Part shown: positions 23,675-48,557 of the stretch, piece after piece
Layout of the letters: each line of letters begins with the position of its first letter
How positions within the stretch are numbered: position 1 is the first letter of the stretch
IMG/VR virus record: IMGVR_UViG_3300042894_008610
DNA length: 64,000 nucleotides
From: a virus
Lineage: Duplodnaviria; Heunggongvirae; Uroviricota; Caudoviricetes
Direction: 5' to 3' (one strand)
The notes under the pieces: model-generated
What the model was told of the DNA's origin: nothing
Database searches by the model: none
Seen by the model: only the letters and a program-made list of their open reading frames with translations
Made by a program: the position numbers and the translations under genes

Positions 23675-23995
23675 TTACTTGGTAACCAAAGCTTCCACTT
23701 TGGATTTCATATGTTCTGACAATGATACCTCACCAACCGTGGGTGTAATCAATGAAGTCAAAACAATTGAATCAACCAAATATTTGTACGGAATGTGAAC
23801 CAAGAAGTCGGTACCATTGAAGAAATCCAAATCTCCTTTGAGTTCCAAACAACCGTGAACCATTTTCAAAAACAACTTAAACTGAATACCGTCAACAAAG
23901 GTTTCATTCAAGAGGGTCCCGAACTTCTCGTTCTCAATCCTAATATTGTATGTAAAATTGATTTTCATACCACAAATATAGAAATAACTTTTCAT
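23675..23995 (-). CDS. hypothetical protein
   Basis: the track ORF extends through terminator 24002-24034; the internal ATG at 23995 (or 23968) is more plausible. Confidence 0.4.
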   Translation of the reverse strand: MKSYFYICGMKINFTYNIRIENEKFGTLLNETFVDGIQFKLFLKMVHGCLELKGDLDFFNGTDFLVHIPYKYLVDSIVLTSLITPTVGEVSLSEHMKSKVEALVTK

Positions 23996-24001
23996 ATAAA
24001 C

Positions 24002-24034
24002 AAAAAAACCCGAAGATTTTTTTCTTCGGGTTCT
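24002..24034 (-). terminator. rho-independent terminator (ACCCGAAG-loop-CTTCGGGT followed by T8 in minus RNA)
   Basis: stem 24008-24015/24024-24031; closes the ORF-free GC-elevated segment and tRNA unit. Confidence 0.6.
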
Positions 24035-24039
24035 GGCAC

Positions 24040-24960
24040 TTAGGTTGAGAATACACCTTCGATTAAGAATCTTTAGGGACATTATTGTTTCTTCCCGTTT
24101 CCACTACCTTTTGAGTAGTAATTCTTAGTGACGGTTCCTTAGGGGTACCATTCCTTGAGTCGTGCGGTTACTCTCTTTGTACTTGTTACTCTCCGAGGTT
24201 GCCACCCCAGTGAATCCTTGCGGGATTAGAGAACTTTCTCAAGAATCATTTGGGTCTTGGGAACCCATAATGGCAATGAACATCTCATTACTATGTAGTC
24301 ACCTTTCGCCTACGACTGACAGACACTTTTCCTTCGTCTTTTAGTATTTGCATACTTCAAAATGCAAAGTTGTTGGTCTGTGGATGGTGAAAGTAGCGGT
24401 CTGCCAACCAGACAAGCCATCTTTTGAACGACTCGATACTGAACTACTCTCTGAGATATCCCTACCTCGATACTTCAAGAAATCTTCATAATTAAAATCT
24501 TGGTAGATTCTAACTAAGGTTACCAACAGCACCACCTGTACGATAACATGACTTTCGTCTTTAAGACACCTCTGATATTGAATCCCGTGATTGTAAAGTT
24601 GGATGACTTTACTTCTCACAACAATTCTACGAGTTATTCTTATTGTTCTTCCGAACTCAACTCAACGACCCACATCGCTGAGTCATCATTCCATTTTGTC
24701 TACAGTGTCACCCTCGACTACTCAGGAACAATGATATCCCGCTTGCCTACTCGAGCTCTAAGAACCGAAGTTCAAAGAACCGCAGTCTCCGTTAACCTTC
24801 GGAGACCACTTTATCCCACTTTCGTGGTTTATTTATTGACCATAGGCGGCCAATTATCTTATTTACTAACCTGTTGGTTAGAAGGATAATCAAATATGTA
24901 AAAGAACGTGTTTCGTTAATTGTTTCACAAAGTTAAGAAGATTATTTTAATCTGTCAAGC
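24040..24960 (-). ncRNA. candidate large structured non-coding RNA (ORF-free, GC-elevated ~0.9 kb, co-oriented with tRNA-Met, ends at a terminator); class unknown
   Basis: only short ORFs in shifting frames; GC visibly higher than flanks; local hairpins such as GTCTCCG-TTAACCTT-CGGAGAC at 24785-24806; no tmRNA or RNase P signatures recognised by eye. Confidence 0.3.
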
Positions 24961-24981
24961 ACTTTGTAAAAGTTTTTTTTG

Positions 24982-25055
24982 TTGCGGGAGTCGGACTCGA
25001 ACCGACGGCCTCAAGGTTATGAGCCTTGCGAGCTACCAACTGCTACCACCCCGCG
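24982..25055 (-). tRNA. trnM: tRNA-Met (anticodon CAU)
   Basis: minus-strand read CGCGGGGTGGTAGCAGTTGGTAGCTCGCAAGGCTCATAACCTTGAGGCCGTCGGTTCGAGTCCGACTCCCGCAAC: T-arm GTCGG/TTCGAGT/CCGAC, anticodon loop CTCATAA, acceptor CGCGGGG/TCCCGCA with a C1:A72 mismatch, no encoded CCA. Confidence 0.8.
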
Positions 25056-25285
25056 ATATATTTTAAAGAACGTGATTCGAAAAAAAATCCCAAAACTTAT
25101 ATCCTCTCGAACACTCATTTTGGGATTTGGGGTTTGAGGATTCTACTCCTCTTCTTCCGAGTGTCTCACAAACTTACGAACAAATTTTGGACTTGTCAAA
25201 TTGTTTATGAAACTTTTTTTGGGGGTATTATCTACCTTTCGGTAGAGTTTTATAAATATATGCTAAAATTGGAAAAAACCAAGTC

Positions 25286-25705
25286 TTACAGTATATTCAT
25301 TAACAATTTATTTAATTTTTCTCCTGTTTCAAGGTTTTTTACTTGTTTTTTGGTAAAATAACCACATTCGGTGTGTTCCTCACCGTCTTTGGCACTCTCC
25401 AAATCAGGTATAAGTTCCGTATCGCTATTGTATTCATATAGATACATTAGTCCCTTGAAGTGTTTACCATCACGCGTAAATCTTGGTAACATACCAGTGA
25501 ACTTTAAGTTATCAGGATTCAAATCTAAATCAGTTTCTTCTTTAAATTCTCTAACAGCTGCCACCCTTGTCTCTTCCCCCTCTTCAATTTTTCCCGCAGG
25601 AACAGACCACATACCAGGGAAACTACCCTTCTTATTTCTCTTACATAGTAAGCATTTGTCACCAACTTTGACTAGTACACCGACGTATCTTTTGTAATCA
25701 TTCAT
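25286..25705 (-). CDS. NUDIX hydrolase
   Basis: Nudix box GKIEEGEETRVAAVREFKEETDL. Confidence 0.8.
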   Translation of the reverse strand: MNDYKRYVGVLVKVGDKCLLCKRNKKGSFPGMWSVPAGKIEEGEETRVAAVREFKEETDLDLNPDNLKFTGMLPRFTRDGKHFKGLMYLYEYNSDTELIPDLESAKDGEEHTECGYFTKKQVKNLETGEKLNKLLMNIL

Positions 25706-25719
25706 ATTTATAGATATCT

Positions 25720-26070
25720 ATGAGAGTAAAAATAGGTGAAAATATATTCAATGTGAAGATTAGACACGACAATAAAGGTCGTGCTATGGGTATGATGGGT
25801 CGTAAATTTACTGACGAGTATAACGGTATGTTATTCTTTATGGATGAAGACTCAAGTTGTTTTTGGATGAAGAACTGCGTCATTCCTCTTGATATCATAT
25901 TCATTGATAATAGAGTAATAACTAAGATACACCACGACTGTCCTCCTTGTAAAGAAGATGACTGTCCAAGTTATTGTGGAAAGGGTGGAATGATTTTAGA
26001 AATTATGGGTGGTTCTGCAAAAGAACTCGATATCAAAAAAGGTGATGAGATTAAGATTCTTGTTGACTAG
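25720..26070 (+). CDS. DUF192 (COG1430) family protein
   Basis: ...MGMMGRKF...GMLFF...WMKNCVIPLDIIFID pattern typical of DUF192. Confidence 0.55.
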   Translation: MRVKIGENIFNVKIRHDNKGRAMGMMGRKFTDEYNGMLFFMDEDSSCFWMKNCVIPLDIIFIDNRVITKIHHDCPPCKEDDCPSYCGKGGMILEIMGGSAKELDIKKGDEIKILVD

Positions 26071-27463
26071 CATCAATCTTCTCTTGTAACTTTCTCAAAA
26101 ATTCCTCACCAATCATTTTAACAAACTTAATGTAAGGAGCGTCCTCTCTTTCAGGGTCGTATCTGTATGAACCTCTTGGTGGTCTTGTACTTCTTCCAAG
26201 ATAGTTAAGTCCTGATATGTTGGTAATACATTTGTGTCCACCTGAGTTAGCTTGAATCAAGTCCCAAGCGTTGATACCAATCTTATCTAACATTTGCATT
26301 TCTTCTTCAGATAGTTGGTCGTATGGTTTTTCCATCATATCCTTAATTTTATCAAGGATTTTTTCACCACCATCCATCATCATCAACTTACCACCATAAA
26401 TTGCATCGAAGTCTTTGAATGTAAATCCTACTGATTCAGGTCCAACTGATGATTCACTCACATACTTTATCGTTGATAATGGGATTGTTCTATCTTTAAG
26501 TTGTCCCTCCCATTTGGCCAGAACCTCTTGTGCAATCTCACCGAGATTAACACCTTTGAGTTCTCTATCTTTTTTGAATGGATTACAAGATGCCTGTACT
26601 AACCCTAACGGCCACATAATAATTAAGAAGTCAGCTTCAGGATTGTTTCTAAAAGGAGTGTATCGGTCATATGACCCAGTACCTTTTAAACTACCCATAC
26701 CATACTGAACGATGATATTACCAATCTTCCTAACATTTGGATGACCTTTCATTGAGTCCATATAGGTCTCAGCGTTTCTTTGAAGGTCCTCAGGTTTTTC
26801 TCTTGTATTGGAACCCATCCAAGATTTGATGTTGTTTAATATTGAAAGTAAGGATGGTTCCGAATCATTAACCAAGTATTCAAGGAACCCTTTCTTGTTT
26901 TTGAACGCCAACAATAGTTTGTTTGTAACAAATCCTAACAACATTTTGTTACTAGCCAAATCTTTTTCTTTGTTAAGTCTAAACAAATAATTGATTACAT
27001 CCTTGGTTGTTAAACCATATTTGGCAAAGTCTGCTGAGTCGACAGTTGATATTAATCTAATGTCATCAGCAGGAAATAATTCTTTTGGTGAGATAATTTG
27101 TGAAATGGTTTCAACGTTTGACCTTGCCTGTCTAAAAGACTTTGAAGCGTCTTTCTCAGCACCGACTTGTTTGTCGTGGTGGTCAGTGTGAATAACAAAC
27201 ATTGGTTTACCGTGAGCAAAATCAACTAAGACTGGCATTACATCACCAGATGCATCAGGTTTTTTAACTGAGAATTCTTTATCTCCATACTGTATAACCT
27301 CACTATCAACAACTTTAATACCATTATCTTCAAGGTATTTTTTCATTGCAATTGCAGTTGTTACACCATCCAAATCTTGGTGGAAATATATTTTAGCCTT
27401 TGGGTATCTTTGTGCCAAAGCCTTAATGTCTCTTAAACCTGATTCCTTAATTATTTTTTTCAT
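26051..27463 (-). CDS. DHH-DHHA1 family phosphoesterase (NrnA/RecJ-core-like)
   Basis: motif I HQDLDGVTTAIAM, motif III VIHTDHHD, DHHA1 GGH (ANSGGHK); the track start is a GTG, ATG at 27463. Confidence 0.7.
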   Translation of the reverse strand: MKKIIKESGLRDIKALAQRYPKAKIYFHQDLDGVTTAIAMKKYLEDNGIKVVDSEVIQYGDKEFSVKKPDASGDVMPVLVDFAHGKPMFVIHTDHHDKQVGAEKDASKSFRQARSNVETISQIISPKELFPADDIRLISTVDSADFAKYGLTTKDVINYLFRLNKEKDLASNKMLLGFVTNKLLLAFKNKKGFLEYLVNDSEPSLLSILNNIKSWMGSNTREKPEDLQRNAETYMDSMKGHPNVRKIGNIIVQYGMGSLKGTGSYDRYTPFRNNPEADFLIIMWPLGLVQASCNPFKKDRELKGVNLGEIAQEVLAKWEGQLKDRTIPLSTIKYVSESSVGPESVGFTFKDFDAIYGGKLMMMDGGEKILDKIKDMMEKPYDQLSEEEMQMLDKIGINAWDLIQANSGGHKCITNISGLNYLGRSTRPPRGSYRYDPEREDAPYIKFVKMIGEEFLRKLQEKIDASQQES

Positions 27464-27472
27464 ACACACTAA

Positions 27473-27844
27473 TTACATTGATGGTAACATACTCATAAGA
27501 ACCACATCGTTAGCTCTTAACCCATTTTTAGCCTTTAAATTACACAAATGATTGAATTTATACATATGGTTCGCTTGCATCGTCATATCTTCTAATTTAC
27601 TCAAACTATCACCAGGTTTGATTTTATACAACATTATGTTTTGCACACCTTCGTTTTTAATATCTTTAACTAAATCTTCTTTAGTGAAACAATATTTTGC
27701 ACCGGCTTCAGTTGGTTTAGGACCTTTTTTAAGAATCTCTTCCGCTTTTTTAACGTAAAAAGATTCAGGTTGTGTCTGTTCACTAACAACCTTACGAATT
27801 AAGTTAGTTAATTCTGACTCTGTTAATCTAATAACTTTTTTCAT
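27473..27844 (-). CDS. hypothetical protein; N-term MKKVIRLTESELTNLIRKVV (motif family)
   Basis: 123-aa ORF. Confidence 0.5.
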   Translation of the reverse strand: MKKVIRLTESELTNLIRKVVSEQTQPESFYVKKAEEILKKGPKPTEAGAKYCFTKEDLVKDIKNEGVQNIMLYKIKPGDSLSKLEDMTMQANHMYKFNHLCNLKAKNGLRANDVVLMSMLPSM

Positions 27845-28215
27845 TAGTATTTAAGTGTTAATAGGTATTTTAATTTGTTTATTAATAGTAACATCTCATC
27901 TCTCAAGTTGAGTAAGTCGCTATCAACTTTAGGGTCTAATCTGTCAGTAAGTGAAATTAAAAATTCACACGTACCATCAATAAAGCTTTGTAATGACATT
28001 GATTCTAAGTCTTGAAACATAATTGAGAATGATTCTGTAAATTCAGGTCTACCATATTTACCCATCATACCTTCAACAAAGTCATCAATGAATCCCCCCA
28101 TTTTATCGTATACTTTACCGTATGCTCTGTGTTTTGCGTCATACATAGTTTGCCAATGTATAAATCTAAATTGGTTTTGTATTTGTACTAATTTTAATAT
28201 TACTTCTTCTTTCAT
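27844..28215 (-). CDS. hypothetical protein
   Basis: 123-aa ORF; 1-nt overlap with the downstream gene. Confidence 0.5.
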   Translation of the reverse strand: MKEEVILKLVQIQNQFRFIHWQTMYDAKHRAYGKVYDKMGGFIDDFVEGMMGKYGRPEFTESFSIMFQDLESMSLQSFIDGTCEFLISLTDRLDPKVDSDLLNLRDEMLLLINKLKYLLTLKY

Positions 28216-28216
28216 T

Positions 28217-29248
28217 TTAAGCCGTCATTGGTCCTTTTATTAATGTATTCATAAACATACCCATTATATCCATTTTTTGTGAACCTAAAGACATTTCGTT
28301 ACCACCATCTTTAACTTCATCTGATACTTTTGGGAAATCCTCTTGTAAATATGTTTGTGCTTCAGGAGTTTTTTCATACTTCTCCATCTTGGCTAATAAT
28401 TCGTCTTCCCCTCCAACTATTTTTTCAAGTTCATCTGGTCCAACAAAATTTGCAACACCTAAATAATCTAAGAATCCTAAATAGAATTTGGTTTTACCCA
28501 TCAAAACTCTAATCTTCATATTACCTTTTCTCCATAGGTCCGAAACTCTTCCAGCACCTAATCCACCACCATAAAAAAATCTTTGTAAAAAATTTGGTTT
28601 GTTTAAAATTGTGGGGTCCAAGAATTTTTCTCTCTTAACTAACGACTCAAGTCCTTGAATTAGTTCTTGTTGTTGTTTAGCAGATTTAGTAGGTAATCTT
28701 TTCGCTAAAGAAGCCGCCTCAGTTCCAACACCTCTAAAAAGTCTTACCCATTCTTTGATGGTGTTTTTAAATCCTCTTGTGATGGCTCCACCAGGTATAC
28801 GGTCAATGAATTCATCAACTTTTGGTGCCCATTCTCTACCTTTTCTTGCGAAAGTACCAAGAGCACCTTCACTTTTAGCAATTTGATTTAGATATTTTTG
28901 CGCTTTAACAGTATCACCAGCATCAACTGCTTTAGATACCGCTCTCATTAATTGAGGTGTTTTACCCCCAACTTTCATCGCTCCCATAACAGATTTACCT
29001 AAAGCATCACCAATGTAAGGGACAACAGAAATTAACGATAAAAAGGCATAAAGGTTATCGCCTTGTCTGTAATAAGATATTGCGTTTATTAAATCAGCAA
29101 TTCCTGTTGGGTCTACAATCCCAACCAAACTTAACACATCATTTTTCCAATTGTCCTCGTTAAGAGTTTTAGTATCAGAAGTTTTTTCCAATACCATAAC
29201 ACTCTTAATGATTTCAAGTTGGGATTCCGTTAATATTACTTGAGGCAT
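28217..29248 (-). CDS. hypothetical protein; N-term MPQVILTESQLEIIKSVM (motif family)
   Basis: the track ORF starts at a TTG at 29272; first ATG at 29248. Confidence 0.5.
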   Translation of the reverse strand: MPQVILTESQLEIIKSVMVLEKTSDTKTLNEDNWKNDVLSLVGIVDPTGIADLINAISYYRQGDNLYAFLSLISVVPYIGDALGKSVMGAMKVGGKTPQLMRAVSKAVDAGDTVKAQKYLNQIAKSEGALGTFARKGREWAPKVDEFIDRIPGGAITRGFKNTIKEWVRLFRGVGTEAASLAKRLPTKSAKQQQELIQGLESLVKREKFLDPTILNKPNFLQRFFYGGGLGAGRVSDLWRKGNMKIRVLMGKTKFYLGFLDYLGVANFVGPDELEKIVGGEDELLAKMEKYEKTPEAQTYLQEDFPKVSDEVKDGGNEMSLGSQKMDIMGMFMNTLIKGPMTA

Positions 29249-29282
29249 AAATTCTTTTACAATAAATACCAAGAAGTTAAAA

Positions 29283-29312
29283 AGAAAACCCCCACTTTTT
29301 TAGTGAGGGTTC
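29283..29312 (-). terminator. family terminator hairpin CCCCCAC-TTTTTTA-GTGAGGG overlapping the last codons of the MTase gene
   Basis: 29289-29309. Confidence 0.55.
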
Positions 29313-30169
29313 TGATTGTTGAAATCGATGACTTGTTGTCTTCGTTGTTCTACGAATAACCCGACTCTGTCTCGAGCCACTTTAGAATAGTTTGGACTCA
29401 GTTCAATACCAATCCATCTTCTGTCAAGTGTCTCAGCGGCGACCAAACTTGTACCTGAACCTGCGAATGGGTCAAGAACAATGTCATTCTTATACGTAAG
29501 AATTTTGATTGCCTTGGTTGGAATATCCATTGAGAACGTGGCTTTAGTTAGACTTCGTGTGTCAGCAAAGTATTTCCACTGTCCGAAAACCAAATCGATG
29601 AACTCACGTTTTTGTTGTTCCGTATACATCATCTTTGGTCTCATATTACCATCCTTACCTTCTACTTCTCCCATTTCGCCAGTCCATTCAGGTTGACCTT
29701 TTACTTTCTTAATGTGTTTGTTTTTGTATGCCAAAATAACACATTCTTTTGGGTTATAGATGTAAGGGGCTGAAGGGCTCATCCAAGACCCCCAAGCCGT
29801 GGTACGACTTCTATGTGGTGATTCTTCTTCAAGGTCAACAACTCCGAAGAATTTGTAACCAATCTGTTTCATAATCTGCCACACTTCACTGACCATAAAG
29901 ATTCTACCTCCTTTATCCTGACGGTTGATTTCGTATGGGATGTTAAGAGCAATCCTACCATCATCTTTCAATACACGGTATGCTTGTTCCATCCACGAAT
30001 ATGTAAATTTTACATATTCCTCCCAAACCATATCATCTTCGTGAACATCATAATCGATACCAACACCATAAGGTGGTGATGTAACAATCAGGTCCACTGA
30101 ACCTTCAGGCATCGAAGCCATCACTTCAATACAATCTCCATTAATTACTCTTCCAATTAAATCTTCCAT
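29300..30169 (-). CDS. DNA methyltransferase, beta-class amino-MTase (SPPY motif IV before FxGxG motif I; N4-C or N6-A)
   Basis: DLIVTSPPYGVGIDYD and DPFAGSGTS. Confidence 0.8.
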   Translation of the reverse strand: MEDLIGRVINGDCIEVMASMPEGSVDLIVTSPPYGVGIDYDVHEDDMVWEEYVKFTYSWMEQAYRVLKDDGRIALNIPYEINRQDKGGRIFMVSEVWQIMKQIGYKFFGVVDLEEESPHRSRTTAWGSWMSPSAPYIYNPKECVILAYKNKHIKKVKGQPEWTGEMGEVEGKDGNMRPKMMYTEQQKREFIDLVFGQWKYFADTRSLTKATFSMDIPTKAIKILTYKNDIVLDPFAGSGTSLVAAETLDRRWIGIELSPNYSKVARDRVGLFVEQRRQQVIDFNNQNPH

Positions 30170-30170
30170 A

Positions 30171-31340
30171 TTATAATCCTAAAATTTCAAGGGTTTTATT
30201 CACTCTACTTTGTGGTGACAAGTTTCTTTCATAATACTCCCTTGCGTTTTTAGAAATATAACTTAAAAATTCGTGGTCATCAACAACCTCTTTGAATCTT
30301 TCCTCAATCATTTTTACGTGGTGAGGTCCTGATAGTCGGTCACTGGCAACTCCATTGTGTCTTGGCATATCATCAGGATATGGAACAGAAATGTAATGTA
30401 CGTTTGGAATTAACTTTTCGTGCATTTCAACTTGGAACTCAAATCTAATCAATGGCATTCCAATCGCCATACATTCAATGTCTCTATAACAAAGTTCTCC
30501 CACTCCTGCCATAGACAACGACACTTGGTAATCTATCATATCATTGAAGTATGCTTCAGGGGTTGTTGGTGTTTCGGGACAATACAACAACTCATCCGAG
30601 AAATGTTTTAAAGCGGGTCTTTGTGAAACATTACCTCTGAAATACATTAAAGGTACTTTGTTTTGAACGTGTTTTCTTTTGTGATAAAACTGTTCCAAGT
30701 CAATCAAACCAGATGGGAAATAAATCCAAGGTGAGTATTTGTCATAGTTATTATCAACGTGGTGTTTAATCTTGTAATCAATGAACTGTGAAATCAAAAC
30801 CTTCTTACATAAAGGATTGTGTTTCTCATTCATAGTTGCGTAACCCAAGTCATCAGAGACACTCATAATCCAAAACTCACCAGAGTCAGCATCTTCAATA
30901 ACATATTCACACTCCAACAATAAGAATTCTTTGGCAAGACCTTTTTTTAATTTAATTTCTTGTCTGTCAAAGTGAGCATTCTCAAAATGCCTGTTCTCAA
31001 TAACCTCATATCGTTCTGATAGTTCTTGGGTTAACTCATCCCAAAATAAATTGTAATTACGATAGTATCGAGTTTTGTCATTTGTTGGGTTATGGATTAT
31101 CAGTCTACGATGAGGTTTATCACCATTTCCACTTTTATTCTGAACCTCACGGTTGAGATACCATAGAGCTTTATTCAAATCTTGAAGTTCCTTGTCAGTC
31201 CCCTTTTTACCTGCCCTTGAAATATATTTTACAGTATTCCCAAGATTAAATCCTAAGTCCCAAGCTTCAATAACTTTTATTGCTTCATATGGATTATTCT
31301 TTCCCCCATAATGTTGAGGGTGATTTACTTGTTCACTCAT
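30171..31340 (-). CDS. DUF3310-domain protein fused to a GT-B-like (glycosyltransferase-like) C-terminal domain
   Basis: N-term HPQHYGG...YEAIKVIEAW (DUF3310 signature); C-terminal GELCYRDIECMAIGMPLI resembles the GT-B E-x7-E / EAMA-G-PVI motif. Confidence 0.5.
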   Translation of the reverse strand: MSEQVNHPQHYGGKNNPYEAIKVIEAWDLGFNLGNTVKYISRAGKKGTDKELQDLNKALWYLNREVQNKSGNGDKPHRRLIIHNPTNDKTRYYRNYNLFWDELTQELSERYEVIENRHFENAHFDRQEIKLKKGLAKEFLLLECEYVIEDADSGEFWIMSVSDDLGYATMNEKHNPLCKKVLISQFIDYKIKHHVDNNYDKYSPWIYFPSGLIDLEQFYHKRKHVQNKVPLMYFRGNVSQRPALKHFSDELLYCPETPTTPEAYFNDMIDYQVSLSMAGVGELCYRDIECMAIGMPLIRFEFQVEMHEKLIPNVHYISVPYPDDMPRHNGVASDRLSGPHHVKMIEERFKEVVDDHEFLSYISKNAREYYERNLSPQSRVNKTLEILGL

Positions 31341-31343
31341 ATA

Positions 31344-32507
31344 TTAATCGTTATAAATTGAACCACTTTTATTTTCAGACTCTTCGAATTGATGTTGTTC
31401 CATAATATCTTTAAGTGGTGATTTTTGAGTATCAACTTTAGTATTCATATTATGAATAATCTTATCAAGAGTTAATGCAAAGTCCAGAGTTTCGGATATG
31501 ATACCAACAATTTTATATGGGTCACCATTTGATGCCGGTCTACGGTCTTCAACATAACCCTTCCATTCTTTTGATGTAGACAATGGAACTCTGATTGATG
31601 CACCTCGGTCAGCAACCCCCCAACTAAACTTGTCAATAGATTGGGTTTCGTGTTTACCAGTCAAACGAAGATTGTTATCAGAACCGTAATTGTTAATGTG
31701 TAACTGATGACGTGAATCAAAGGCGTTAAAGATGTTTTTGAAGTATTCATCACCACCTTCATTTCTCATCTTGTCATTTGAGAAGTTACAGTGTAATCCT
31801 GAACCATTCCAATCACCCATCACAGGTTTAGGGTGGAATTCAATCTTAAAACCATAGTCCTCAGACATTTGTTGTAAAATGTATCTCGACATCCACAAAT
31901 CATCACCGGCCTTTAATTTACCTTTGGAGAATACCTGGTACTCCCACTGACCCAATAAGACCTCGGCGTTTGTACCTGTAATTTCAATACCTGCCAAGAT
32001 ACAATTTTCCATATGAGTATCCACAAATTTTCTACCGTTAACTTGTCCGTTACCTACACCACAATAGTATTTTCCTTGTGGTTCAGGATATCCATTCTCA
32101 GGGAAACCCAAAGGTCTACCATCTTTCATAATGGTATACTCTTGTTCAAAACCAAACCAAAGGTCCTCTTCTTCTTCCCCAACAAGACTTCTTGTATTTG
32201 ATACGTGTGGAGTCCCATCGGGATTCATAACCTCACACAACACCAAGAAAGACCATAGACCACCTTCGTTAAGTGAGTTGTGATAAACTCTAACAGGTTT
32301 CAAAATACAATCAGAAAAATGTCCGTCAGCTTGTTGTGTTGATGAACCATCAAAACTCCACTCAGGGCAATCCTTCAGTGTTATAATATCCCCATATGGA
32401 ATATTCTGAAGACCAGTCTCTTCTTTTTCAATCACCTTAACCTTACTTCTAAGATTAGGTTCTGGCTGATACCCATCCAACCACACATATTCTAATTTAA
32501 CTTTCAT
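31344..32507 (-). CDS. glnA: glutamine synthetase, type II
   Basis: KVKLEYVWLDG beta-grasp start; PEWSFDGSSTQQA; FGFEQEYT; GTNAEVLLGQWEYQ; NWNGSGLHCNFS; SIRVP — collinear with eukaryote/bacterial GSII. Confidence 0.9.
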   Translation of the reverse strand: MKVKLEYVWLDGYQPEPNLRSKVKVIEKEETGLQNIPYGDIITLKDCPEWSFDGSSTQQADGHFSDCILKPVRVYHNSLNEGGLWSFLVLCEVMNPDGTPHVSNTRSLVGEEEEDLWFGFEQEYTIMKDGRPLGFPENGYPEPQGKYYCGVGNGQVNGRKFVDTHMENCILAGIEITGTNAEVLLGQWEYQVFSKGKLKAGDDLWMSRYILQQMSEDYGFKIEFHPKPVMGDWNGSGLHCNFSNDKMRNEGGDEYFKNIFNAFDSRHQLHINNYGSDNNLRLTGKHETQSIDKFSWGVADRGASIRVPLSTSKEWKGYVEDRRPASNGDPYKIVGIISETLDFALTLDKIIHNMNTKVDTQKSPLKDIMEQHQFEESENKSGSIYND

Positions 32508-32512
32508 ATTAT

Positions 32513-32704
32513 TTAATTTTCTTTTTTTACAACGTAGTAACCTTTGGAATAACTAGACTCCTCAATCAATCCTTCATCCATTAGTTTATTTAATTTAACT
32601 TCAGTTTCATTTTCAGTCTCTTTCAAAATGTATTTTGAAATGTAACTGATGTGAATTGGTTGTCTCAACTTAGAAAGTAGTGTCTTGAGCGTCTTGTCTT
32701 CCAT
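32513..32704 (-). CDS. small hypothetical protein (possible wHTH)
   Basis: 63-aa ORF. Confidence 0.35.
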   Translation of the reverse strand: MEDKTLKTLLSKLRQPIHISYISKYILKETENETEVKLNKLMDEGLIEESSYSKGYYVVKKEN

Positions 32705-32706
32705 AA

Positions 32707-32934
32707 TTAATAATCTAAAAATTTATCATTGTCTTCCAAAAATTCTAAAAATGGGTGGTCATAATCCATATCAACCCATTTTCCTTTATTTCCATCCCAT
32801 ATCAAATATTCATCTGAGATATTTGTTCGGGTATATTTAAGTTCAAAAGTTTTACCCTTATCATCCTTGACCTTATATTGAGTTGTATAAGAGAATGATA
32901 GTTCTTCTGGTGGACCTACAATTGAGTATTTCAT
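32707..32934 (-). CDS. hypothetical protein
   Basis: 75-aa ORF. Confidence 0.4.
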   Translation of the reverse strand: MKYSIVGPPEELSFSYTTQYKVKDDKGKTFELKYTRTNISDEYLIWDGNKGKWVDMDYDHPFLEFLEDNDKFLDY

Positions 32935-33155
32935 TTCTTTTTCTTTTTGTACTTTTTCTCAACACCCTCCGTTTTTTCTTTTTTCTTAACTTCGGTAATG
33001 ATTGGAGCAACTCGTCCATCTTCTTTCCATTCGTTCTTTGGAATGAACTTCCAATAACCCGTTGAAACTCGTTGGTCCGCAACCTTGTCTTCAACGCGCA
33101 TAATTCGTCCCACCTCGTACTGAGATGTTTCTTTGATAGCTTTAATGCATTTCAT
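32931..33155 (-). CDS. hypothetical protein with Lys-rich C-terminus
   Basis: 74 aa; preferred over the overlapping ORF 32873..33094. Confidence 0.4.
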   Translation of the reverse strand: MKCIKAIKETSQYEVGRIMRVEDKVADQRVSTGYWKFIPKNEWKEDGRVAPIITEVKKKEKTEGVEKKYKKKKK

Positions 33156-33357
33156 TTTTAGTAGTATTAGATTTTAAGTTAAATGTAGTAATGATTTCTT
33201 GTTCTGACAAATTCTTCTCATAAAGTTTATAAACTTTGCTTGAAAACTCATCCATAAAGATGATTGCGTCAGCCTTACCATAGAGACCGTCCAAATTGTA
33301 TTTGTATAAGTAATGTAAGGTTGTTTGTTCTGAAATGTATCGTCTGTGAAAACCCAT
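33142..33357 (-). CDS. hypothetical protein
   Basis: 71-aa ORF. Confidence 0.4.
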   Translation of the reverse strand: MGFHRRYISEQTTLHYLYKYNLDGLYGKADAIIFMDEFSSKVYKLYEKNLSEQEIITTFNLKSNTTKNEMH

Positions 33358-33366
33358 ATCACAAAA

Positions 33367-34152
33367 TTACGAAACAATTTTTAAATTATCAAAATTTTCT
33401 AACTTTTCTTTTGGGACACTTTGAAGAATATATGAAAGAAGTTTTCTTTTCGCCATTGGGATAAGCGTCTCTTCAAAAGGGAAATGTTGTCTTGATTGAA
33501 ACTCAAACACAGGTAATTTACTTTGGTACACGTCTTGTTTCCAATTTGTAGATTCATTAATTATTTGATTAACTGTTCTACCATCAGTAACTCCTGAAAA
33601 AATAGACTCAAGATGTAATTTAGAGTCTTTTGACTTTTTTATCTTTCTTATTGAGTACTCCCAAATGTATAACTCTTTTTCAGGTTTACGAGTATAAACT
33701 AAGTACCCATAACCTTTGTGTAAGTAGTTCTTATTTTTTTTATGTTGTATATCTGTAGATTCGTAAACAATAGACCATATGGATTTACCAATACTGAAAA
33801 CATCCATAAGTTTTGAGTTTGAGTAATATAAAGTTTTCTTTAATTCTAAACTTTGGTCTTCATTTAGATTAGGTAATTTTTTTGGGTATAATTCTTTCAA
33901 TAGAATTTCATCATCACAAGTTTCGAATTTTTTATTCGTAAGTAATAATGTATTTTCTCGATTAATTGATTGGACATTAGCTAAATGAAGTGAAATCTCG
34001 ACAAAATCAGGGTATATCTTATAATCGTCAAAACTACTCTCACATTTTTGTATGTAATCTAATAGCGTATATTTGTTATACTCAAAATCTATTGGTTCCT
34101 GAAACATCCATTCAGGACTCAACTTAAATTGTGTTTTTCTCTTTCTTCCCAT
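33367..34152 (-). CDS. hypothetical protein
   Basis: 261-aa ORF. Confidence 0.5.
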   Translation of the reverse strand: MGRKRKTQFKLSPEWMFQEPIDFEYNKYTLLDYIQKCESSFDDYKIYPDFVEISLHLANVQSINRENTLLLTNKKFETCDDEILLKELYPKKLPNLNEDQSLELKKTLYYSNSKLMDVFSIGKSIWSIVYESTDIQHKKNKNYLHKGYGYLVYTRKPEKELYIWEYSIRKIKKSKDSKLHLESIFSGVTDGRTVNQIINESTNWKQDVYQSKLPVFEFQSRQHFPFEETLIPMAKRKLLSYILQSVPKEKLENFDNLKIVS

Positions 34153-34182
34153 TTACTAAATGATAATTAAAAAGAAAATTTA

Positions 34183-35934
34183 TTAAAGTTTTATAATGTA
34201 ATAAGTCTCTCCTTGGACGGTCTCTTCGTGAACCGCCCCATCATTGTGTGACATCATATCATAACTCTCATTATCGATAACAGTATCTATAAATTTTTCC
34301 TTATCAATAAAATCATCTAATTCTAATCCGTAATCCTCCGCGTATCCAGTTGGGTTGTATCTAACTTCATCCAACTTACTTTCAATCATATTTTCAATAT
34401 CATCGTCTGAAAAATCACCTTCAGGATTTTCTTCTATTTCTTCTTTTTGTTCTTCTAATTCAGTAATATAGTCTTCCAATTGACTAATTCTATCGTCAAT
34501 TTTATCAACCTTATCTTCATCATCAATCCCATATTTAATTTTTTCAAGTCTTTCTATCTCCCTTTGTGTTTGTAAAACTCTAGCGTCAATAATTTTAATA
34601 GTTTCAACTTGTTTTGAATCTAATTGTCTTTGGGAATCGTCTAAATAAGCATCAGGCTCTTGGTAAACGTCCTGATTGAAATAATCATCAAACCAATTAA
34701 GTATTTCATCCTCATTAACCGCATTATCCTTAACCCAACTAGCAAACCCATCATACCCTTCAGTATCAACCATATCCTCAACATACTCTCTCAACGCATC
34801 ATCCATCTCCGTCTCGGTACCCACAGTATATTCATCACCATATAGTTCAGTTGCAAATTTTTGCATTCCATAGTGTTGGGATTCCAAAGGTATTAAATCG
34901 TAAACGTCTTTATATTCTTTAAACTCATCTAACTCTTCTTCTAATTGTTCAATCTGAGATAATAAATCATACCTTACAGTATCAGAATTTTCATATTCTT
35001 CTTGAAGTTCACTTATTCTTTCTAAAATATCCGTTCTTCTTTCTTCATCATCTTCACTCATAGATTCGATTTCTCCCTCTGAAACCAAATAATCAAAAAG
35101 TGCGTGTGCCATCAATCCTATAGTTGGGCAATCAGGACCTAACTCCCACTCTTTATCAATTCTTCGTTCATTTGCTTCTTCCATAGACAATCTTTTTTCT
35201 TGAGCAATCCTTTTTTCTTGTTCTTTTTTATCAATATCAGTCTTTGTTATGTAGTAATCTAAATTACTCATTTTGTCTTCATATTTTCTCTCAAGAAAAC
35301 TAATAATAAACGAATACACAACATTAAAGTTTGGTATAGAATTTAAAACATCCTCCATACCAACTCTCACATTTTTAACATAAAAATAAGGTTTGGAGTT
35401 TCTAACAAAAACAATTGTTATTTTTTCCTCAGGATTATTTTTATTAATTAAATAGACAATTTTTTTGTCCCCATATTCCCCATATGTTATGTTAAACGAG
35501 TTTTCACTACTAACGTCGACACATCCTACAGAATCTTTACCATAATAACAAGCGCCTGATTGGGTAGATGGTGAAACAATCAATAATTTATCATCTTCAA
35601 ATATTATGGACTTGTTATTGGTAGTGGTCATATTGTTTAGATATTGACCGGTAAAACTATCTATTTGGTTTTTTAAATCTTCATATGAACCAAACTTATT
35701 AATGTCAGTTGTTTGTAAAACACCTTTAAGTCTTTCAAATTTCTGTGTCAAATCAATAATATTAATTAAGTTAATATTATCCCCTTCTTCAGGGAATTTG
35801 TTTGCAACCCAATCCCAATACTCAGGTTGGATGTATTTTACTATTGACGATAAGAGTGGTAAACTCAGTTTGTCCTTATATTTTGTTGTAAAATCAGACT
35901 TACTTTGTTCTTTTAATAACTTACGGATTGACAT
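34183..35934 (-). CDS. large hypothetical protein with a highly acidic C-terminal half
   Basis: 583 aa; D/E-rich repeats. Confidence 0.55.
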   Translation of the reverse strand: MSIRKLLKEQSKSDFTTKYKDKLSLPLLSSIVKYIQPEYWDWVANKFPEEGDNINLINIIDLTQKFERLKGVLQTTDINKFGSYEDLKNQIDSFTGQYLNNMTTTNNKSIIFEDDKLLIVSPSTQSGACYYGKDSVGCVDVSSENSFNITYGEYGDKKIVYLINKNNPEEKITIVFVRNSKPYFYVKNVRVGMEDVLNSIPNFNVVYSFIISFLERKYEDKMSNLDYYITKTDIDKKEQEKRIAQEKRLSMEEANERRIDKEWELGPDCPTIGLMAHALFDYLVSEGEIESMSEDDEERRTDILERISELQEEYENSDTVRYDLLSQIEQLEEELDEFKEYKDVYDLIPLESQHYGMQKFATELYGDEYTVGTETEMDDALREYVEDMVDTEGYDGFASWVKDNAVNEDEILNWFDDYFNQDVYQEPDAYLDDSQRQLDSKQVETIKIIDARVLQTQREIERLEKIKYGIDDEDKVDKIDDRISQLEDYITELEEQKEEIEENPEGDFSDDDIENMIESKLDEVRYNPTGYAEDYGLELDDFIDKEKFIDTVIDNESYDMMSHNDGAVHEETVQGETYYIIKL

Positions 35935-36023
35935 TATTTTTTATTTGATAAATACTTTGATTGATTTATATTTCTACAAGTTTACTATTTATATGTAATA
36001 AAACTCCAATACTACAAAATTAT

Positions 36024-36176
36024 GGGATGTGGTTGTAAAAACAAAGCAAACAACAGTACTAACACTCAATCAAGTCAACAACAGACTCAAGCAACCGCTC
36101 AAAGAGCTCAGTATGTTCAAGAGACTGTTAAAGATGCCATTAAGAAAACAGTTGAGAAATATTACAAACGTTAAGT
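36024..36176 (+). CDS. small protein (50 aa, MGCGCKNKANNST..., Gln-rich)
   Basis: plus-strand ORF followed by a strong terminator; below the track cut-off. Confidence 0.4.
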
Positions 36177-36194
36177 TGTAATATGTTAGTAAAA

Positions 36195-36226
36195 TTAAAA
36201 GGGTGAAGAAATTCACCCTTTTTTTA
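36195..36226 (+). terminator. rho-independent terminator GGGTGAA-GAAA-TTCACCC + T7
   Basis: 36201-36225. Confidence 0.6.
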
Positions 36227-36235
36227 TATTTATAA

Positions 36236-37258
36236 GTGATGACAGGGAAATTACAAAGATTAATCGACGATGTTAATAATGGTAAATTTGATATTATCAA
36301 AGATTTTTTTGGTGATATGGAAACTTTTTTGGACTATCTTGGTAAAAAAGGTTTGATACACGAATTAGACCTTATTAACAACGAAGAAGAATTCGAATAT
36401 GAAGTTAACAAAATAGCCCTCGCAATTAAAGAACATAATCCCGAAAAATTTAGAGAATATGTTTTATCTTCATTAAGTGATGTTACTTATGAAAATGGTG
36501 AATACTATGTGACTTTGAATGATAAAAGTAGACTCGCGTATCTTTTTTGTGATGATAGAAGAAATGGTATGTCTCAATCAACAATATCAGAGATACTAGA
36601 TGGTGAATGGGATTTTGATTTTTGGGATACTACCGATAATGTTTATAGGGATGTTATTCAAGAACTAAATAAGGATAATCTTACTTATTTATCAAAAAAA
36701 ATAAGTAACGAATTATCTGACGTTAAGGTAGAACCTGAAACAGAATTGTTAGAAGAAATTGCCGAGGAACAAGGTCATCCTGAATATGTAACCTTAACCC
36801 CCGAGTTGATTCACGACAGAATATTCAATGATGAGGATTCAACAGAAAGTATTTTGAATGAAACCGAAAACATTAAATCAGATTTACACTCATTACATAA
36901 CAGAGCATATGCAAATGCTTATGAAGATGAGGTGTATAGTGGTATAATGGATGAACTTGAAACATTTTTTGATATGCGCCATTCTGATTGGATAACAGTT
37001 CCAAGTAGTGTAAACCCAAACAAATCTTATACCTATTTCAAAGTTAAAATAAATAATTTTGATTCAGAGATTTCCGATTACCTTAATAACGCGAAGAATC
37101 ATAATGAACCATTAAGTAATTATGGTGACTATCTTAGTATTTTGAGTGAAAATATTAGTTATGGTAGTGCCAATTGTTTGGTATATTACACGCCTGATTA
37201 TGCGGATTGGCCAAAAACAAAAGAAAATATTAACGAACTTTTTGGTGACTATTTTTAA
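36236..37258 (+). CDS. hypothetical acidic protein
   Basis: 340 aa; converges on tail-fibre gene 1. Confidence 0.55.
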
Positions 37259-40200
37259 ATAATCCCCTTTAGTTTAGCTTTATCCAAAACTTTTTTAGCT
37301 CTCTCTTCAAGAGATGTTATTCTAACCTCTTGTTCTTTTAACGCTTCAATGTTAACGGCAATCATTTCTTTATAATTCATTGTTAACACTTTACCTTCAG
37401 TATAAATAACTTCAGGAACATAAGGCAAAACTTCTTGAGCAATAAATCCAATAGCTTTTTTGTCATTAGAACTATATTCTTTACCTCTCCATTTAAATGT
37501 GACACCTCTAATACTTAATATCTTATTTAGAGCATCACCGATAGGTTTAACATCTTTTTTCAGTCTTTCATCTGAAGGACCTGTTGGTCCTTGTGGACCT
37601 TGAGCTCCTTGTGCTCCGAATGTTGAACTAGCACCTCCTTGAGCCCCTGGTGCTCCTTGTGCCCCTGTTGGACCTGGTGTTGCAGAACCTTGAGCACCTG
37701 TTGGTCCTTTAAGACCTGTAGGTCCTTGTGCACCGACGGCTCCCTCAAAACCTTGTGAACCTTGAGCTCCTTGAGCCCCTGTTGCACCTTGTGCACCTTG
37801 TGGTCCATTAGGAGACGTTGGCCCTTGAGCCCCTTGAGCTCCTTGAGCTCCAATAGCACCTGAATTTCCTTGAGCGCCTTGAGCACCTTGAGCGCCGGCT
37901 GTACCTGAACCTTGAGCACCTTGAGGTCCTGTTGGTCCTGTTGCACCTTGAGGTCCTGTTGGTCCTGTTGCACCTTGAGCACCTTGAAATCCTTGACCCC
38001 CTGTAGGTCCTACGGCTCCTTGTGAACCTTGAGCCCCTTGAGGTCCTGTTGGTCCTGTTGCACCTTGAGCTCCTTGAGCTCCAACAGGTCCTTGAGCACC
38101 TGTGGCTCCTTGGAATCCCTGCTGACCATTAGGTCCTATTCCACCTACGTCCCCTTGAGCACCTTGCGCTCCTTGGAATCCTTGTCCTCCTGTTGCTCCT
38201 TGAGACCCTTGAGCACCTGTTCCTCCTTGAGCTCCCTGAAAACCTTGTCCTCCTTGCGCCCCTTGTGGACCTTGAGCTCCTGTGGCACCTTGAGCACCTT
38301 GAGCTCCCTGCCCACCTTGCGCTCCTTGTGGACCTATTGCTCCTTGGAAACCTTGTGCTCCTTGAAAACCTTGTCCTCCTTGAGCCCCTTGAGTTCCTGT
38401 TGCTCCTTGAGCACCTTGAGCCCCTTGTGCTCCCTGTCCTCCTGTTGCGCCTTGAGCTCCTTGTGCTCCTTGTCCTCCTGTTGCTCCTTGGACTCCTTGT
38501 CCACCTGTTGCTCCTTGCGCACCTTGGTTACCAACAGCACCTTGAGCTCCTTGGAAACCTTGAGCCCCCTGACCTCCTTGTGCACCTTGTACTCCAACAG
38601 CACCTTGAGCCCCTTGTGCTCCTTGGAAACCTTGTCCTCCTTGAGCACCTTGAGTACCTGATATACCTACAGAACCTTGAGAACCTTGAGCCCCTTGTCC
38701 TCCTTGAGCACCTTGAGTTCCTGATACACCTTGAGCTCCTTGAGCCCCTTGGAAACCTTGACCTCCTTGAGCACCTTGAGTTCCTGTTGTACCTTGAGCC
38801 CCTTGAGCTCCTTGAAAACCTTGTCCTCCTTGAGCTCCTTGGGTTCCTGTTGCTCCTTGAGCTCCTTGAGCTCCTTGAGCTCCTTGGAAACCTTGAGCAC
38901 CTTGGGTTCCTGTTGCACCTTGAGCCCCTTGAGCTCCTTGGAAACCTTGACCTCCTTGAGCCCCTTGGGTTCCTGTCGCTCCTTGTGCACCTTGAGCTCC
39001 TTGTGCTCCCTGTCCACCCTGAGCACCCTGAGTTGCTGTCGCTCCTTGCGCTCCTTGAGCTCCTTGAGCTCCTTGACCACCTTGAGCACCTTGGTTACCA
39101 ACTGCCCCTTGTGAACCTTGAGCCCCTTGTGCTCCTTGTCCACCTTGGGCTCCCTGATTACCTTTAGCCCCTTGAGCTCCTTGCGCCCCTTGGGCTCCTT
39201 GACCACCTTGAGCACCTTGGTTACCAACTGCCCCTTGTGAACCTTGAGCCCCTTGCGCTCCTTGTCCACCTTGCGCTCCTTGTCCACCTTGAGCACCTTG
39301 AGCCCCTTGTGCTCCTTGAGCACCTTGTCCTCCTTGAGCACCTTGTGTTCCCGTTGCACCTTGAGCACCTTGAGCTCCTTGGAAACCTTGTCCACCTTGA
39401 GCACCCTGTGTTCCTGTTGCTCCTTGAGCCCCTTGTGCTCCTTGGGCTCCTTGTCCACCTTGAGCACCCTGTGTTCCTGTTGCACCTTGAGCACCTTGTG
39501 CTCCTTGGGCTCCTTGTCCACCTTGGGCACCTTGGTTACCCTTTCCACCTTGAGCACCTTGTGCTCCTTGGGCTCCTTGTCCACCTTGAGCACCCTGTGT
39601 TCCTGTTGCACCTTGAGCACCTTGTGCTCCTTGGGCTCCTTGTCCACCTTGGGCACCTTGGTTACCCTTTCCACCTTGAGCACCTTGTGCTCCTTGGGCC
39701 CCTTGTCCACCTTGAGCACCCTGATTACCTGTCGCACCCTGAGCCCCTTGAGCTCCTTGAGCTCCCTGTCCACCTTGTGCACCTTGGTTACCAACCGCTC
39801 CTTGTGAACCTTGAGCTCCTTGAGCTCCTTGTCCTCCTTGGGCGCCTTGGTTACCAACCGCTCCTTGTGAACCTTGAGCTCCTTGAGCACCTTGTCCACC
39901 TTGAGCACCTTGATTACCTTTTCCACCTTGAGCGCCTTGAGCTCCTTGAGCTCCTTGTCCTCCTTGGGCACCTTGGTTACCAACCGCTCCTTGTGAACCT
40001 TGAGCTCCTTGAGCTCCTTGTCCACCTTGAGCGCCTTGATTACCTTTTCCACCTTGGGCGCCTTGAGCACCTTGAGCACCTTGTCCTCCTTGAGCCCCTT
40101 GGTTACCTGTTGCCCCTTGAGCTCCTTGTGCGCCTTGTGAACCTTGCCCTCCTGTTGCTCCTTGGGAACCTTGAGCTCCTTGGGCTCCTTGACTACCAAC

Positions 40201-40539
40201 CGCTCCTTGAGCACCTTGGTTACCAGTATTACCCTGAGCACCTTGTCCTCCTTGGGCACCTTGATTACCTTGAGCGCCTTGTGGTCCAGCATTTACATTA
40301 CCTTTCCATCCGGTAGAGTCTATTATTAATCCGTAATTGTTTGTAACTGTATTAGCACTTAAATTTGTATTTTGTACTTGGAATATAGGTGCTGTCTTGG
40401 CAATTTTTAGATATGTTGTTGTTTGATTTACAACATAATTCAATGTAGAACTAGAATATACCAAATCACTTCGAGTATTCCCCGAATCATAAAATTGTAT
40501 TGTTATACTTGCAGGTACTATTATTATATTCTCAGCCAC
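37255..40539 (-). CDS. collagen-like (Gly-X-Y) tail fibre protein with C-terminal S74 intramolecular chaperone (auto-processing) domain
   Basis: ~290 GXY triplets ([11 protein letters not shown]...); C-terminus SDERLKKDV...FKW...IGFIAQEV matches the endosialidase-chaperone/S74 motif; GTG start (MAENIII). Confidence 0.85.
37620..40290 (-). repeat. collagen triplet-coding repeat array (9-18 nt period, many near-perfect copies)
   Basis: read directly; generates spurious Leu-rich and Lys-rich ORFs in other frames. Confidence 0.8.
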
Positions 40540-43500: not shown

Positions 43501-43954
43501 GTGCCCCTGTTGTTCCTTGCGCCCCTTGAGACGCTCCTTGAGCACCTTGTGCTCCTACTGCTCCTTGAGCACCAGTACTACCTTGTGCTCCTTGAGCTCC
43601 TGTACTACCACCCCCACCTTGAGCTCCCGTTGTTCCTTGTGCCCCAACATTTCCTTGAGCTCCTTGAGCACCTTTAATAGTTGTTTGTGGTCCAATCCAT
43701 ACACCGGCATTATTAATCATATTTTGACCACCAACCCATAAACCTGATGGTGAACTTGATATTGTAACACCTGTAGTTGTTATGTCATTATTACTGAAAA
43801 CTACTAATGATGGACTTGTTGTTGCAGAAAATTTGACATCACCCGGTGCAACCATATTAATTTGGATACTATCCGCAGCAGACGCCCCCTCGTATACTAT
43901 ATGAGGCGATGAGTTTCCTGTAGTTCCACTTGGATATATTATTACGTCTGCCAT
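40532..43954 (-). CDS. collagen-like tail fibre protein with C-terminal S74 intramolecular chaperone domain (paralog 2)
   Basis: GXY array; C-terminus [11 protein letters not shown]...FDW...[16 protein letters not shown]. Confidence 0.85.
40850..43650 (-). repeat. collagen triplet-coding repeat array
   Basis: read directly. Confidence 0.8.
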
Positions 43955-43957
43955 ATA

Positions 43958-48187: not shown

Positions 48188-48196
48188 ATTCTATAA

Positions 48197-48505: not shown

Positions 48506-48557
48506 AATATTATTTTACTACAAAATATATGAAAATAAAAAAGGGAGTAAACCTCCC

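Follow-up and report, generated by a model that had tools for sequence, protein, structure and literature searches.

A type II glutamine synthetase gene in a phage genome fragment

The DNA analysed here is a 64,000-nucleotide (nt) stretch of the IMG/VR record IMGVR_UViG_3300042894_008610, classified among the tailed phages (Caudoviricetes), and the whole of this stretch is referred to below as the window. Nearly all of its genes lie on the minus strand, and its GC content is about 33%. One of them encodes a glutamine synthetase (GS) of type II (GSII), which is the subject of this report. The GS gene is followed by a gene carrying a DUF3310 domain and by a DNA methyltransferase gene, and it is preceded by four small open reading frames (ORFs) and two longer conserved genes (Table 1). 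The initial annotation, made from the sequence alone, had proposed a full-length, phage-encoded GSII at this position. This proposal is borne out by the exact ORF, by both expected Pfam domains, by the GlnII model as best match and by the solved structures of GSII.

The two Pfam domains, Gln-synt_N (39.3 bits, cutoff 33.4) and Gln-synt_C (58.2 bits, cutoff 24), were both found above their gathering cutoffs. When the NCBIfam models were ranked, GlnII came first with 388.7 bits, far ahead of the type I (50.9) and type III (28.6) models. Among solved structures, 16 GSII matches were obtained over amino acids (aa) 2-344, with E values from 3.9e-101 to 2.5e-84. The top structures are all of type II, with the yeast Gln1 (3fky, 3.9e-101) and the Streptomyces coelicolor enzyme (4bax, 4e-96) aligning through aa 344, and the plant and human enzymes are also among the 16. 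The best type I chain reached only 2.7e-11. The protein therefore combines the two-domain architecture of the family with a sequence nearer to GSII than to the type I (GSI) or type III (GSIII) enzymes, and the assignment of the 387-aa protein to type II, judged on these sequence comparisons, is secure and far beyond a chance match. In PHROGs, only a weak and uninformative match to the unnamed family phrog_21628 (8.5e-16) was obtained. Of the motifs quoted in the initial annotation, KVKLEYVWLDG (aa 2-12), FGFEQEY (118-124), GTNAEVLLGQWE (178-189) and SIRVP (304-308) are present as written; in the fifth, given as NWNGSG.H.NFS, the first residue had been misread, the actual sequence being DWNGSGLHCNFS.

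The active site is complete

The 17 ligand sites for the two metals, ATP, glutamate and ammonium were read from an alignment in which the window protein was compared with 80 cellular homologues, with 62 further distinct viral ones and with the GSII of human, yeast and S. coelicolor. Residues were numbered on what we take to be the human GLUL sequence, each being confirmed in its expected local motif (D63, S66, E134, E136, Y162, E196, E203, N248, G249, H253, S257, R299, E305, R319, R324, E338 and R340). The window protein has every one of the 17, and neither the 63 distinct viral sequences nor the 80 cellular ones vary at any of them. In the window protein, the metal ligands are E121, E123, E182, E189, H239 and E320 (human E134, E136, E196, E203, H253 and E338). 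The substrate residues of the catalytic domain are Y148, N234, G235, S243, R281, E287 of the flap, R301, R306 and R322, and the ammonium-site residues D53 and S56 sit in the beta-grasp domain. The loss of Mn/Mg-binding glutamates that would betray a pseudo-enzyme was not seen, every one of them being kept. Within the viral clade described below, pairwise dN/dS values lie mostly between 0.03 and 0.2, as is the case under purifying selection.

The active site is thus intact, and enzymatic activity can be predicted from it. The window gene very probably encodes an active, phage-borne GSII (glutamate-ammonia ligase, EC 6.3.1.2). The enzyme would be expected to assemble into a decamer of two pentameric rings with the active sites between subunits; D53, a subunit-interface residue, is kept in the window protein, and the AlphaFold2 model presented below covers the monomer.

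The viral sequences form a clade of bacterial affinity

A scan of IMG/VR showed that at least 596 viral contigs encode a relative, and the best 80 loci were analysed. Identity to the window protein ranges from 57 to 100% among these 80, which lie on contigs of up to 304 kb; dozens of IMG/VR contigs show 70-100% identity. A scan of GTDB, with one genome per species, gave at least 600 matches, of which the 80 best loci were likewise retained; the closest among the matches listed is about 60% identical. These surveys contradict two statements of the initial annotation. GSII was said to be very unusual in phages, a description that applies only to deposited phage genomes (4 of 50,697 records, all of them metagenomic huge phages) and neither to the IMG/VR contigs nor to the literature, where viral GS has been reported since 2007. 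GSII was also said to be uncommon in Bacteroidetes. Many of the 80 best GTDB loci nevertheless belong to Bacteroidota, including the complete chromosome of Flavobacterium faecale and genomes of Tenacibaculum, Aquimarina, Leeuwenhoekiella, Saprospiraceae and Cytophagales, and GSII is common in the genomes of this phylum.

A neighbour-joining tree was computed from 331 core columns with 100 bootstraps, each collection contributing its 80 closest sequences. All 63 distinct viral sequences fall into one clade devoid of any cellular member, in 100 of the 100 replicates. In 70% of the replicates, the sister of this clade is a sequence (L097) from a gammaproteobacterial metagenome-assembled genome (MAG). 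The idea that L097 lies on a mis-binned phage contig was considered and rejected, since its neighbours are cellular genes (SecB, GpsA, PyrD, OmpW and a SpoU methylase). The GSII of Bacteroidota are nearly as close, at 58-59% identity, so the donor lineage is not narrowed to one group. The core of the window protein is 61.7% identical to L097 versus 45-50% to the human and yeast enzymes, and the donor of the GS gene of the viral clade is accordingly bacterial, not eukaryotic. The GC content at third codon positions (GC3) of the GS gene, 0.307, is close to the window median of 0.301.

One viral contig of 304 kb (IMGVR_UViG_3300031857_000005) carries two different GS genes near its two ends (locus L064, positions 650-1696 of the locus, and locus L068, positions 10001-11047 of the locus). 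Compared with the window protein, their products show 61.9% and 64.4% identity, and their C-terminal tails differ. This arrangement reflects either true paralogy or the end-to-end assembly of two related phages.

A C-terminal extension of the viral enzymes

Cellular GlnII are about 330-340 aa long and end about 29 aa after the EDRRP motif, whereas the window protein continues for about 43 aa more. The difference is general, with a median tail length after EDRRP of 63 aa in the viral sequences and 29 aa in the cellular ones. In the extension, the last helix is prolonged through a semi-conserved segment, HNM(Y/F), beyond which comes a variable, acidic tail that often contains EELLxEY. A few members of the viral clade are without it (L038, L045 and L053). 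An AlphaFold2 model of moderate quality (pLDDT 74.8, pTM 0.78), limited by a shallow alignment and used for the C-terminal helix only, places a helix at residues 330-355 and is of low confidence past about residue 360. A second variable element is the beta-grasp loop at aa 27-46, which in some viral members, including the window protein, is up to about 9 aa longer than in cellular GSII.

It is conceivable, if doubtful, that the virus-only GSII is a long-retained, near-core gene of a large aquatic phage lineage whose tail confers a distinct property. If this were true, the extension, with its HNMY helix and acidic EELLxEY tail, might free the enzyme from feedback or inactivating factors of the host, or tether it to a partner of phage or host origin, and the phage would rewire nitrogen flow in a manner closed to the host GSII. 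The same extension, absent from cellular GSII and present with its recurring motifs in most viral members, also lends itself to the proposal that the GS fold is retained as a pseudo-enzyme or moonlighting protein, acting as a regulator or binding partner, for instance through the acidic tail, and supplying no glutamine. GS does moonlight as a regulator in some bacteria, as in Bacillus subtilis with TnrA and GlnR. We consider this proposal improbable for the window protein: a pure binding role predicts neither the invariance of the 17 catalytic and ligand residues throughout the viral clade nor such strong purifying selection, and several members of the clade lack the tail altogether.

A gene block conserved in viral loci

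From position 35934 down to 29300, the genes around GS are arranged head to tail on one strand, in a block bracketed by terminator-like hairpins. The DUF3310 gene begins 3 nt past the GS stop codon and the closest small ORF stops 5 nt ahead of the GS start codon. On the basis of this tight, co-directional packing, GS is probably co-transcribed with its neighbours. The hairpin at the end of the methyltransferase gene, a 12-bp stem followed by a T run, is the putative 3' end of the transcription unit, and the bidirectional one separates the block from the genes upstream. The former is a consensus match only, and terminator-like sites are no more numerous in the region than expected by chance. 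The block is preceded, at a distance of about 80 nt from its first gene, by a promoter-like site matching a consensus that we take to be that of Bacteroidota. Nine such sites are found in the window versus 3.8 expected, a modest enrichment (9 was reached in 1 of 100 shuffles), and they lie mostly on the coding strand, upstream of genes. A scan for sigma-70 promoters gave no enrichment (38 found, 39 expected), and no promoter of this type was called.

The block recurs in the viral loci. A homologue of the DUF3310 gene adjoins GS in 60 of the 80, mostly through the DUF3310 part alone, and a methyltransferase homologue accompanies it in 60 as well. For the 261-aa and 583-aa genes, which have no Pfam or PHROG match, a homologue precedes GS in 50 and 39 of these loci respectively, and in none of the 80 cellular ones. 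Homologues of the four small ORFs occur in 37, 1, 15 and 26 viral loci, and the same genes were called on identical contigs of the Joint Genome Institute (JGI). Window genes farther from GS also recur in viral loci, among them those for a 472-aa protein, a second methyltransferase and DnaJ. None of the genes flanking GS was found in any of the 80 cellular loci. In the DUF3310 protein of the window, the domain itself covers aa 5-63, and the C-terminal region of about 300 aa has no Pfam or PHROG match; this full-length fusion is confined to the closest relatives (L001, L006, L010 and L027).

The adjacency to DUF3310 and to an N6/N4 DNA methyltransferase in 60 of the 80 viral loci might suggest that the enzyme is instead an amidoligase with a changed acceptor, one that would attach gamma-glutamyl groups to a polyamine, to a nucleotide or to a modified base of DNA. 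Reactions of this kind are carried out by GS-like enzymes in certain phage pathways of DNA hypermodification or polyamine metabolism. GS-like amidoligases have been described in modification systems (Iyer et al. 2009, as cited in PMC7824862). This interpretation is very improbable here. Both DUF3310 and methyltransferases are common in phages, which makes their adjacency weak evidence, and the window protein is 55-60% identical to the housekeeping GlnII of bacteria. To our knowledge, the GS-like enzymes with alternative substrates are type I-like and have lost the ammonium-site residues, whereas D53, S56, Y148 and the E287 flap are all kept in the window protein.

The window is phage DNA

Phage genes are distributed across the 64 kb on both sides of GS, as expected from the phage origin claimed in the initial annotation. 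Three tandem genes encode collagen triple-helix repeat proteins ending in Peptidase_S74 chaperone domains, a composition typical of tail fibres, and they account for an island of strongly skewed composition with a GC content of about 0.5 at 38-48 kb. On one otherwise identical contig (L162), the same fibre region was called as many short genes, and the fibres may vary between strains or assemble poorly. The lysis genes comprise an Amidase_2 lysin and an endolysin-like protein. The window also encodes, in addition to DUF3310, two DNA methyltransferases, a T4-type RNA ligase, an SbcC-like protein, phosphoesterases, DnaJ, a prolyl isomerase and a sigma factor. A set of sugar-modification genes suggests that glycans containing galactofuranose decorate the virion, the DNA or the surface of the host. 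The ORFs scanned in the 64 kb included no cellular housekeeping gene, whether ribosomal, core-metabolic or other.

For other proteins of the window, the only matches were to the metagenomic huge phages LR745206 and LR756502 and to a structural protein of the jumbo phage PA5oct. A megablast of positions 24000-37000 against the 50,697 phage records gave no match, and the phage therefore appears, from these searches, to have no close deposited relative. The identical GS protein was found with the same neighbours in JGI and European Nucleotide Archive samples (at least 5 metagenome samples), where at least 17 contigs carry it; the longest, of about 93-99 kb, include contigs of the JGI samples 3300002835 and 3300042482. 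With phage genes on both of its flanks and its catalytic residues kept, the GS gene has the features expected of an auxiliary metabolic gene, and the phage reading of the window is well supported.

These observations bear directly on the hypothesis that the gene is simply a bacterial glnII on a contig of bacterial origin, or a recent host fragment in a prophage, either of which would tell nothing of phage biology. GSII is indeed widespread in the genomes of Bacteroidota, Planctomycetota and Verrucomicrobiota, and catalogues of viral contigs contain some misclassified cellular DNA. The ORFs scanned, however, have phage-typical domains, encode a few chaperones and enzymes of sugar metabolism, or match nothing. 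Identity stays at or below about 60% for the GTDB matches listed and reaches 70-100% for many IMG/VR contigs, the viral sequences are monophyletic in every replicate, their neighbours are conserved in viral loci only, and the GC3 of the gene is that of the phage. This hypothesis, already largely refuted, is hardly tenable. Next to no weight can be given to a contig of a giant eukaryotic virus (Nucleocytoviricota), even though some of these viruses also encode GSII and collagen-like fibres, collagen repeats occurring in giant viruses, and the tree of the Global Ocean Sampling (GOS) paper (PMC1821046) has a viral GSII group near eukaryotic GS and mimivirus: the window holds a bacterial sigma-70 factor, a peptidoglycan amidase, an endolysin, Peptidase_S74 domains and DUF3310, its matches in deposited genomes are only to huge phages and jumbo Pseudomonas phages, and its GS nests among bacterial sequences, with the identities given above.

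Outside the GS finding, the most striking thing in the window is a full-length GOLLD RNA at 24042-24451 on the minus strand (Rfam RF02032, 307.5 bits versus a gathering cutoff of 150, model positions 1-416). It lies about 530 nt downstream of a tRNA-Met gene (24981-25055, minus strand), and a promoter-like site of the Bacteroidota type is found nearby at 25200-25169 on the same strand. Two minus-strand ORFs overlap this RNA, one at 24341-24619 and the other by its end (23675-24082), and they may be spurious. The first of the four tandem ORFs at 47598-48845 has a weak match to a thioredoxin domain.

Table 1. Coordinates of the glutamine synthetase gene, its domains and other features of the 64-kb window
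Feature	Position	Strand	Basis or remark
Type II glutamine synthetase gene	31344..32507	minus	ORF from ATG to stop; 387 aa and stop codon
N-terminal beta-grasp domain, aa 5-96	32220..32495	minus	Pfam PF03951, residue mapping, loop alignment
Catalytic domain, aa ~115-344	31476..32165	minus	Pfam PF00120, PDB alignments, residue mapping to human GLUL
Virus-clade C-terminal extension, aa 345-387	31347..31475	minus	Tail-length comparison, AlphaFold2 model
DUF3310 N-terminal domain with ~300-aa unannotated C-terminal part	30171..31340	minus	Pfam DUF3310; PHROG 'nucleotide kinase'-associated domain
N6/N4 DNA methyltransferase, last gene of the block	29300..30169	minus	phrog_67 (3.6e-45); PF01555 in JGI annotation of identical contigs
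Terminator-like hairpin at methyltransferase gene end	29285..29313	minus	Consensus match; 12-bp stem, then T run
Four small ORFs (63, 75, 74, 71 aa) directly upstream of GS	32513..33357	minus	ORF calls
Two conserved upstream genes (261 aa and 583 aa)	33367..35934	minus	Homologues in viral loci
Bacteroidota-type promoter-like site, TTTG-N19-TAATTTTG	36015..36045	minus	~80 nt upstream of first gene of the block
Bidirectional terminator-like hairpin	36197..36222	.	Separates block from upstream genes
Three tandem collagen triple-helix repeat genes (1094, 1140, 1192 aa)	37255-47536	minus	C-terminal Peptidase_S74 chaperone domains
Four tandem ORFs (93-102 aa)	47598-48845	minus	Three with homologues in 22-35 related viral loci
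DnaJ, three-domain, full length	51775-52710	minus	
Cyclophilin-type prolyl isomerase	12705-13154	minus	
Sigma-70 family factor	60903-61712	minus	
Sugar-modification set: UDP-galactopyranose mutase, at least three family-2 glycosyltransferases (one with TPR repeats), cytidylyltransferase-like protein	17713-21215, 9548-10267, 5761-6192	minus	GLF, 1.9e-75 (mutase)

Comparison with known glutamine synthetases

The best-scoring structures are those of eukaryotic GSII (yeast Gln1 3fky, human GLUL and maize GS1a 2d3a), which have identical metal and substrate ligands. Their core identity to the window protein (45-50%) is nevertheless below that of bacterial GlnII, which share the same two domains and all catalytic residues at 51-60% core identity (S. 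coelicolor 4bax; Flavobacteriia, Saprospiraceae, Planctomycetota and Verrucomicrobiota). Since the viral clade lies among bacterial sequences, the term "eukaryote-like" is a historical label and not a statement of origin. The context differs as well, cellular genes surrounding GlnII at the one annotated closest cellular locus (L097).

A full-length GSII is also found on the metagenome-assembled genomes of the deposited huge phages LR756501/LR756503 (735 kb), LR756502 (642 kb) and LR745206 (635 kb). These four deposited genes all fall outside the viral clade of the window (L166-L168 are the sequences of LR756501, LR745206 and LR756502). That of LR756501 groups with the cellular GSII of Bacteroidota (69% identity to L085) and is without the tail, and those of LR745206 and LR756502 form a separate pair. 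Together with the clade of the window, these placements imply that GSII was acquired by phages at least three times independently.

Phage GS has a published history. A viral type II GS was named in the GOS paper of 2007 (PMC1821046), and a review of 2022 includes viral GS in its list of auxiliary genes of marine nitrogen metabolism (PMC9083009). Two reports followed in 2025: 9 of 25 moraphages, whose predicted hosts are Bacteroidota, carry a GS (PMC12619734), and 248 GS genes were counted in 247 huge phages, mostly from freshwater and marine environments (Huge Phage Genome Collection, bioRxiv 10.1101/2025.02.27.640493); both of these papers speculate on a role in glutamine supply. The published genes likewise come from the genomes of large aquatic phages or from scaffolds of viral metagenomes, and a role in nitrogen or glutamine supply has been proposed for them too. 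The window shares with the moraphages a GS, a DnaJ, a sigma factor, several glycosyltransferases and an exonuclease subunit (PMC12619734), an overlap of traits only; no structural or packaging marker by which it could be placed among them was found in the window. In their available portions, neither the 2025 reports nor the review (PMC9083009) state the type of GS. The corresponding portions of the four sources (PMC1821046, PMC9083009, PMC12619734 and bioRxiv 10.1101/2025.02.27.640493) describe no virus-only clade, conserved synteny or C-terminal extension, and they contain no biochemical test of a phage GS. The idea of a phage GS is therefore already published, and the window gene is real and not new in kind. 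The present analysis makes modest additions to it, namely a virus-only GSII clade, a conserved gene block, a C-terminal extension and repeated acquisition.

Probable host and proposed role

Motifs resembling Shine-Dalgarno (SD) sequences were found upstream of only 3-5 of the 64 window genes, and the upstream regions are A/T-rich. Such SD-poor initiation fits the mode of translation typical of Bacteroidota. A host from this phylum is likely, as suggested by the scarcity of SD motifs, by the TTTG/TAnnTTTG promoter-like sites and by the host predictions made for moraphages (PMC12619734).

The following scenario can be proposed for the phage-borne GSII. The GS gene would have passed from a bacterium to the ancestor of the viral clade in the distant past, and large aquatic tailed phages of this kinship would have kept it since in one conserved block. 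During infection, the block would be transcribed as a unit and the enzyme would convert glutamate, NH4+ and ATP to glutamine under phage control. Glutamine is the amide-nitrogen donor for the synthesis of nucleotides, amino sugars and NAD. The phage enzyme could then sustain the amide nitrogen needed for purines, pyrimidines, amino sugars and NAD once host expression and host nitrogen regulation fail the phage. A phage-controlled supply of glutamine during infection is the likely role; its use for nucleotide synthesis in particular is plausible and a weaker proposition.

The long persistence of the gene in phages is favoured over the capture of a recent host fragment, an outcome that the initial annotation had named as fatal to its claim; it is contradicted by the monophyly of the viral sequences in 100 of 100 replicates, by an identity of at most about 60% to the GTDB genomes listed and by the conserved phage synteny. 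Several observations weigh against the interpretation. The nearest cellular sequence, L097, is gammaproteobacterial and not from Bacteroidota. The tree is only a neighbour-joining one, limited to the 80 closest sequences per collection and two eukaryotic outgroup sequences. No glutamine-consuming amidotransferase was found among the window ORFs scanned, which makes the link between GS and nucleotide synthesis indirect. Finally, and with little force, the score of the window protein falls short of the 500-bit equivalog cutoff of the NCBIfam GlnII model (NF041605). The same cutoff is missed by cellular GSII, including those of the complete F. faecale chromosome (367.6), a Flavobacteriales MAG (L093, 414.9), a Bacteroidota MAG (L083, 430.1) and the gammaproteobacterial MAG (L097, 364.6). 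A functional divergence of the viral enzyme was considered as an explanation of its score and rejected, since chromosomal GSII of Bacteroidota miss the cutoff too (about 365-430 bits); the cutoff therefore reflects a narrow seed rather than a different function.

The presence of this enzyme would have consequences for the biology of the infected cell. A phage with its own unregulated GS can keep up its glutamine supply in nitrogen-poor lakes and oceans, and the phage GS would thereby affect both the phage yield and the assimilation of ammonium in infected cells. The gene is ecologically relevant through its abundance, since relatives are encoded on at least 596 viral contigs and the identical protein was found on at least 17 contigs.

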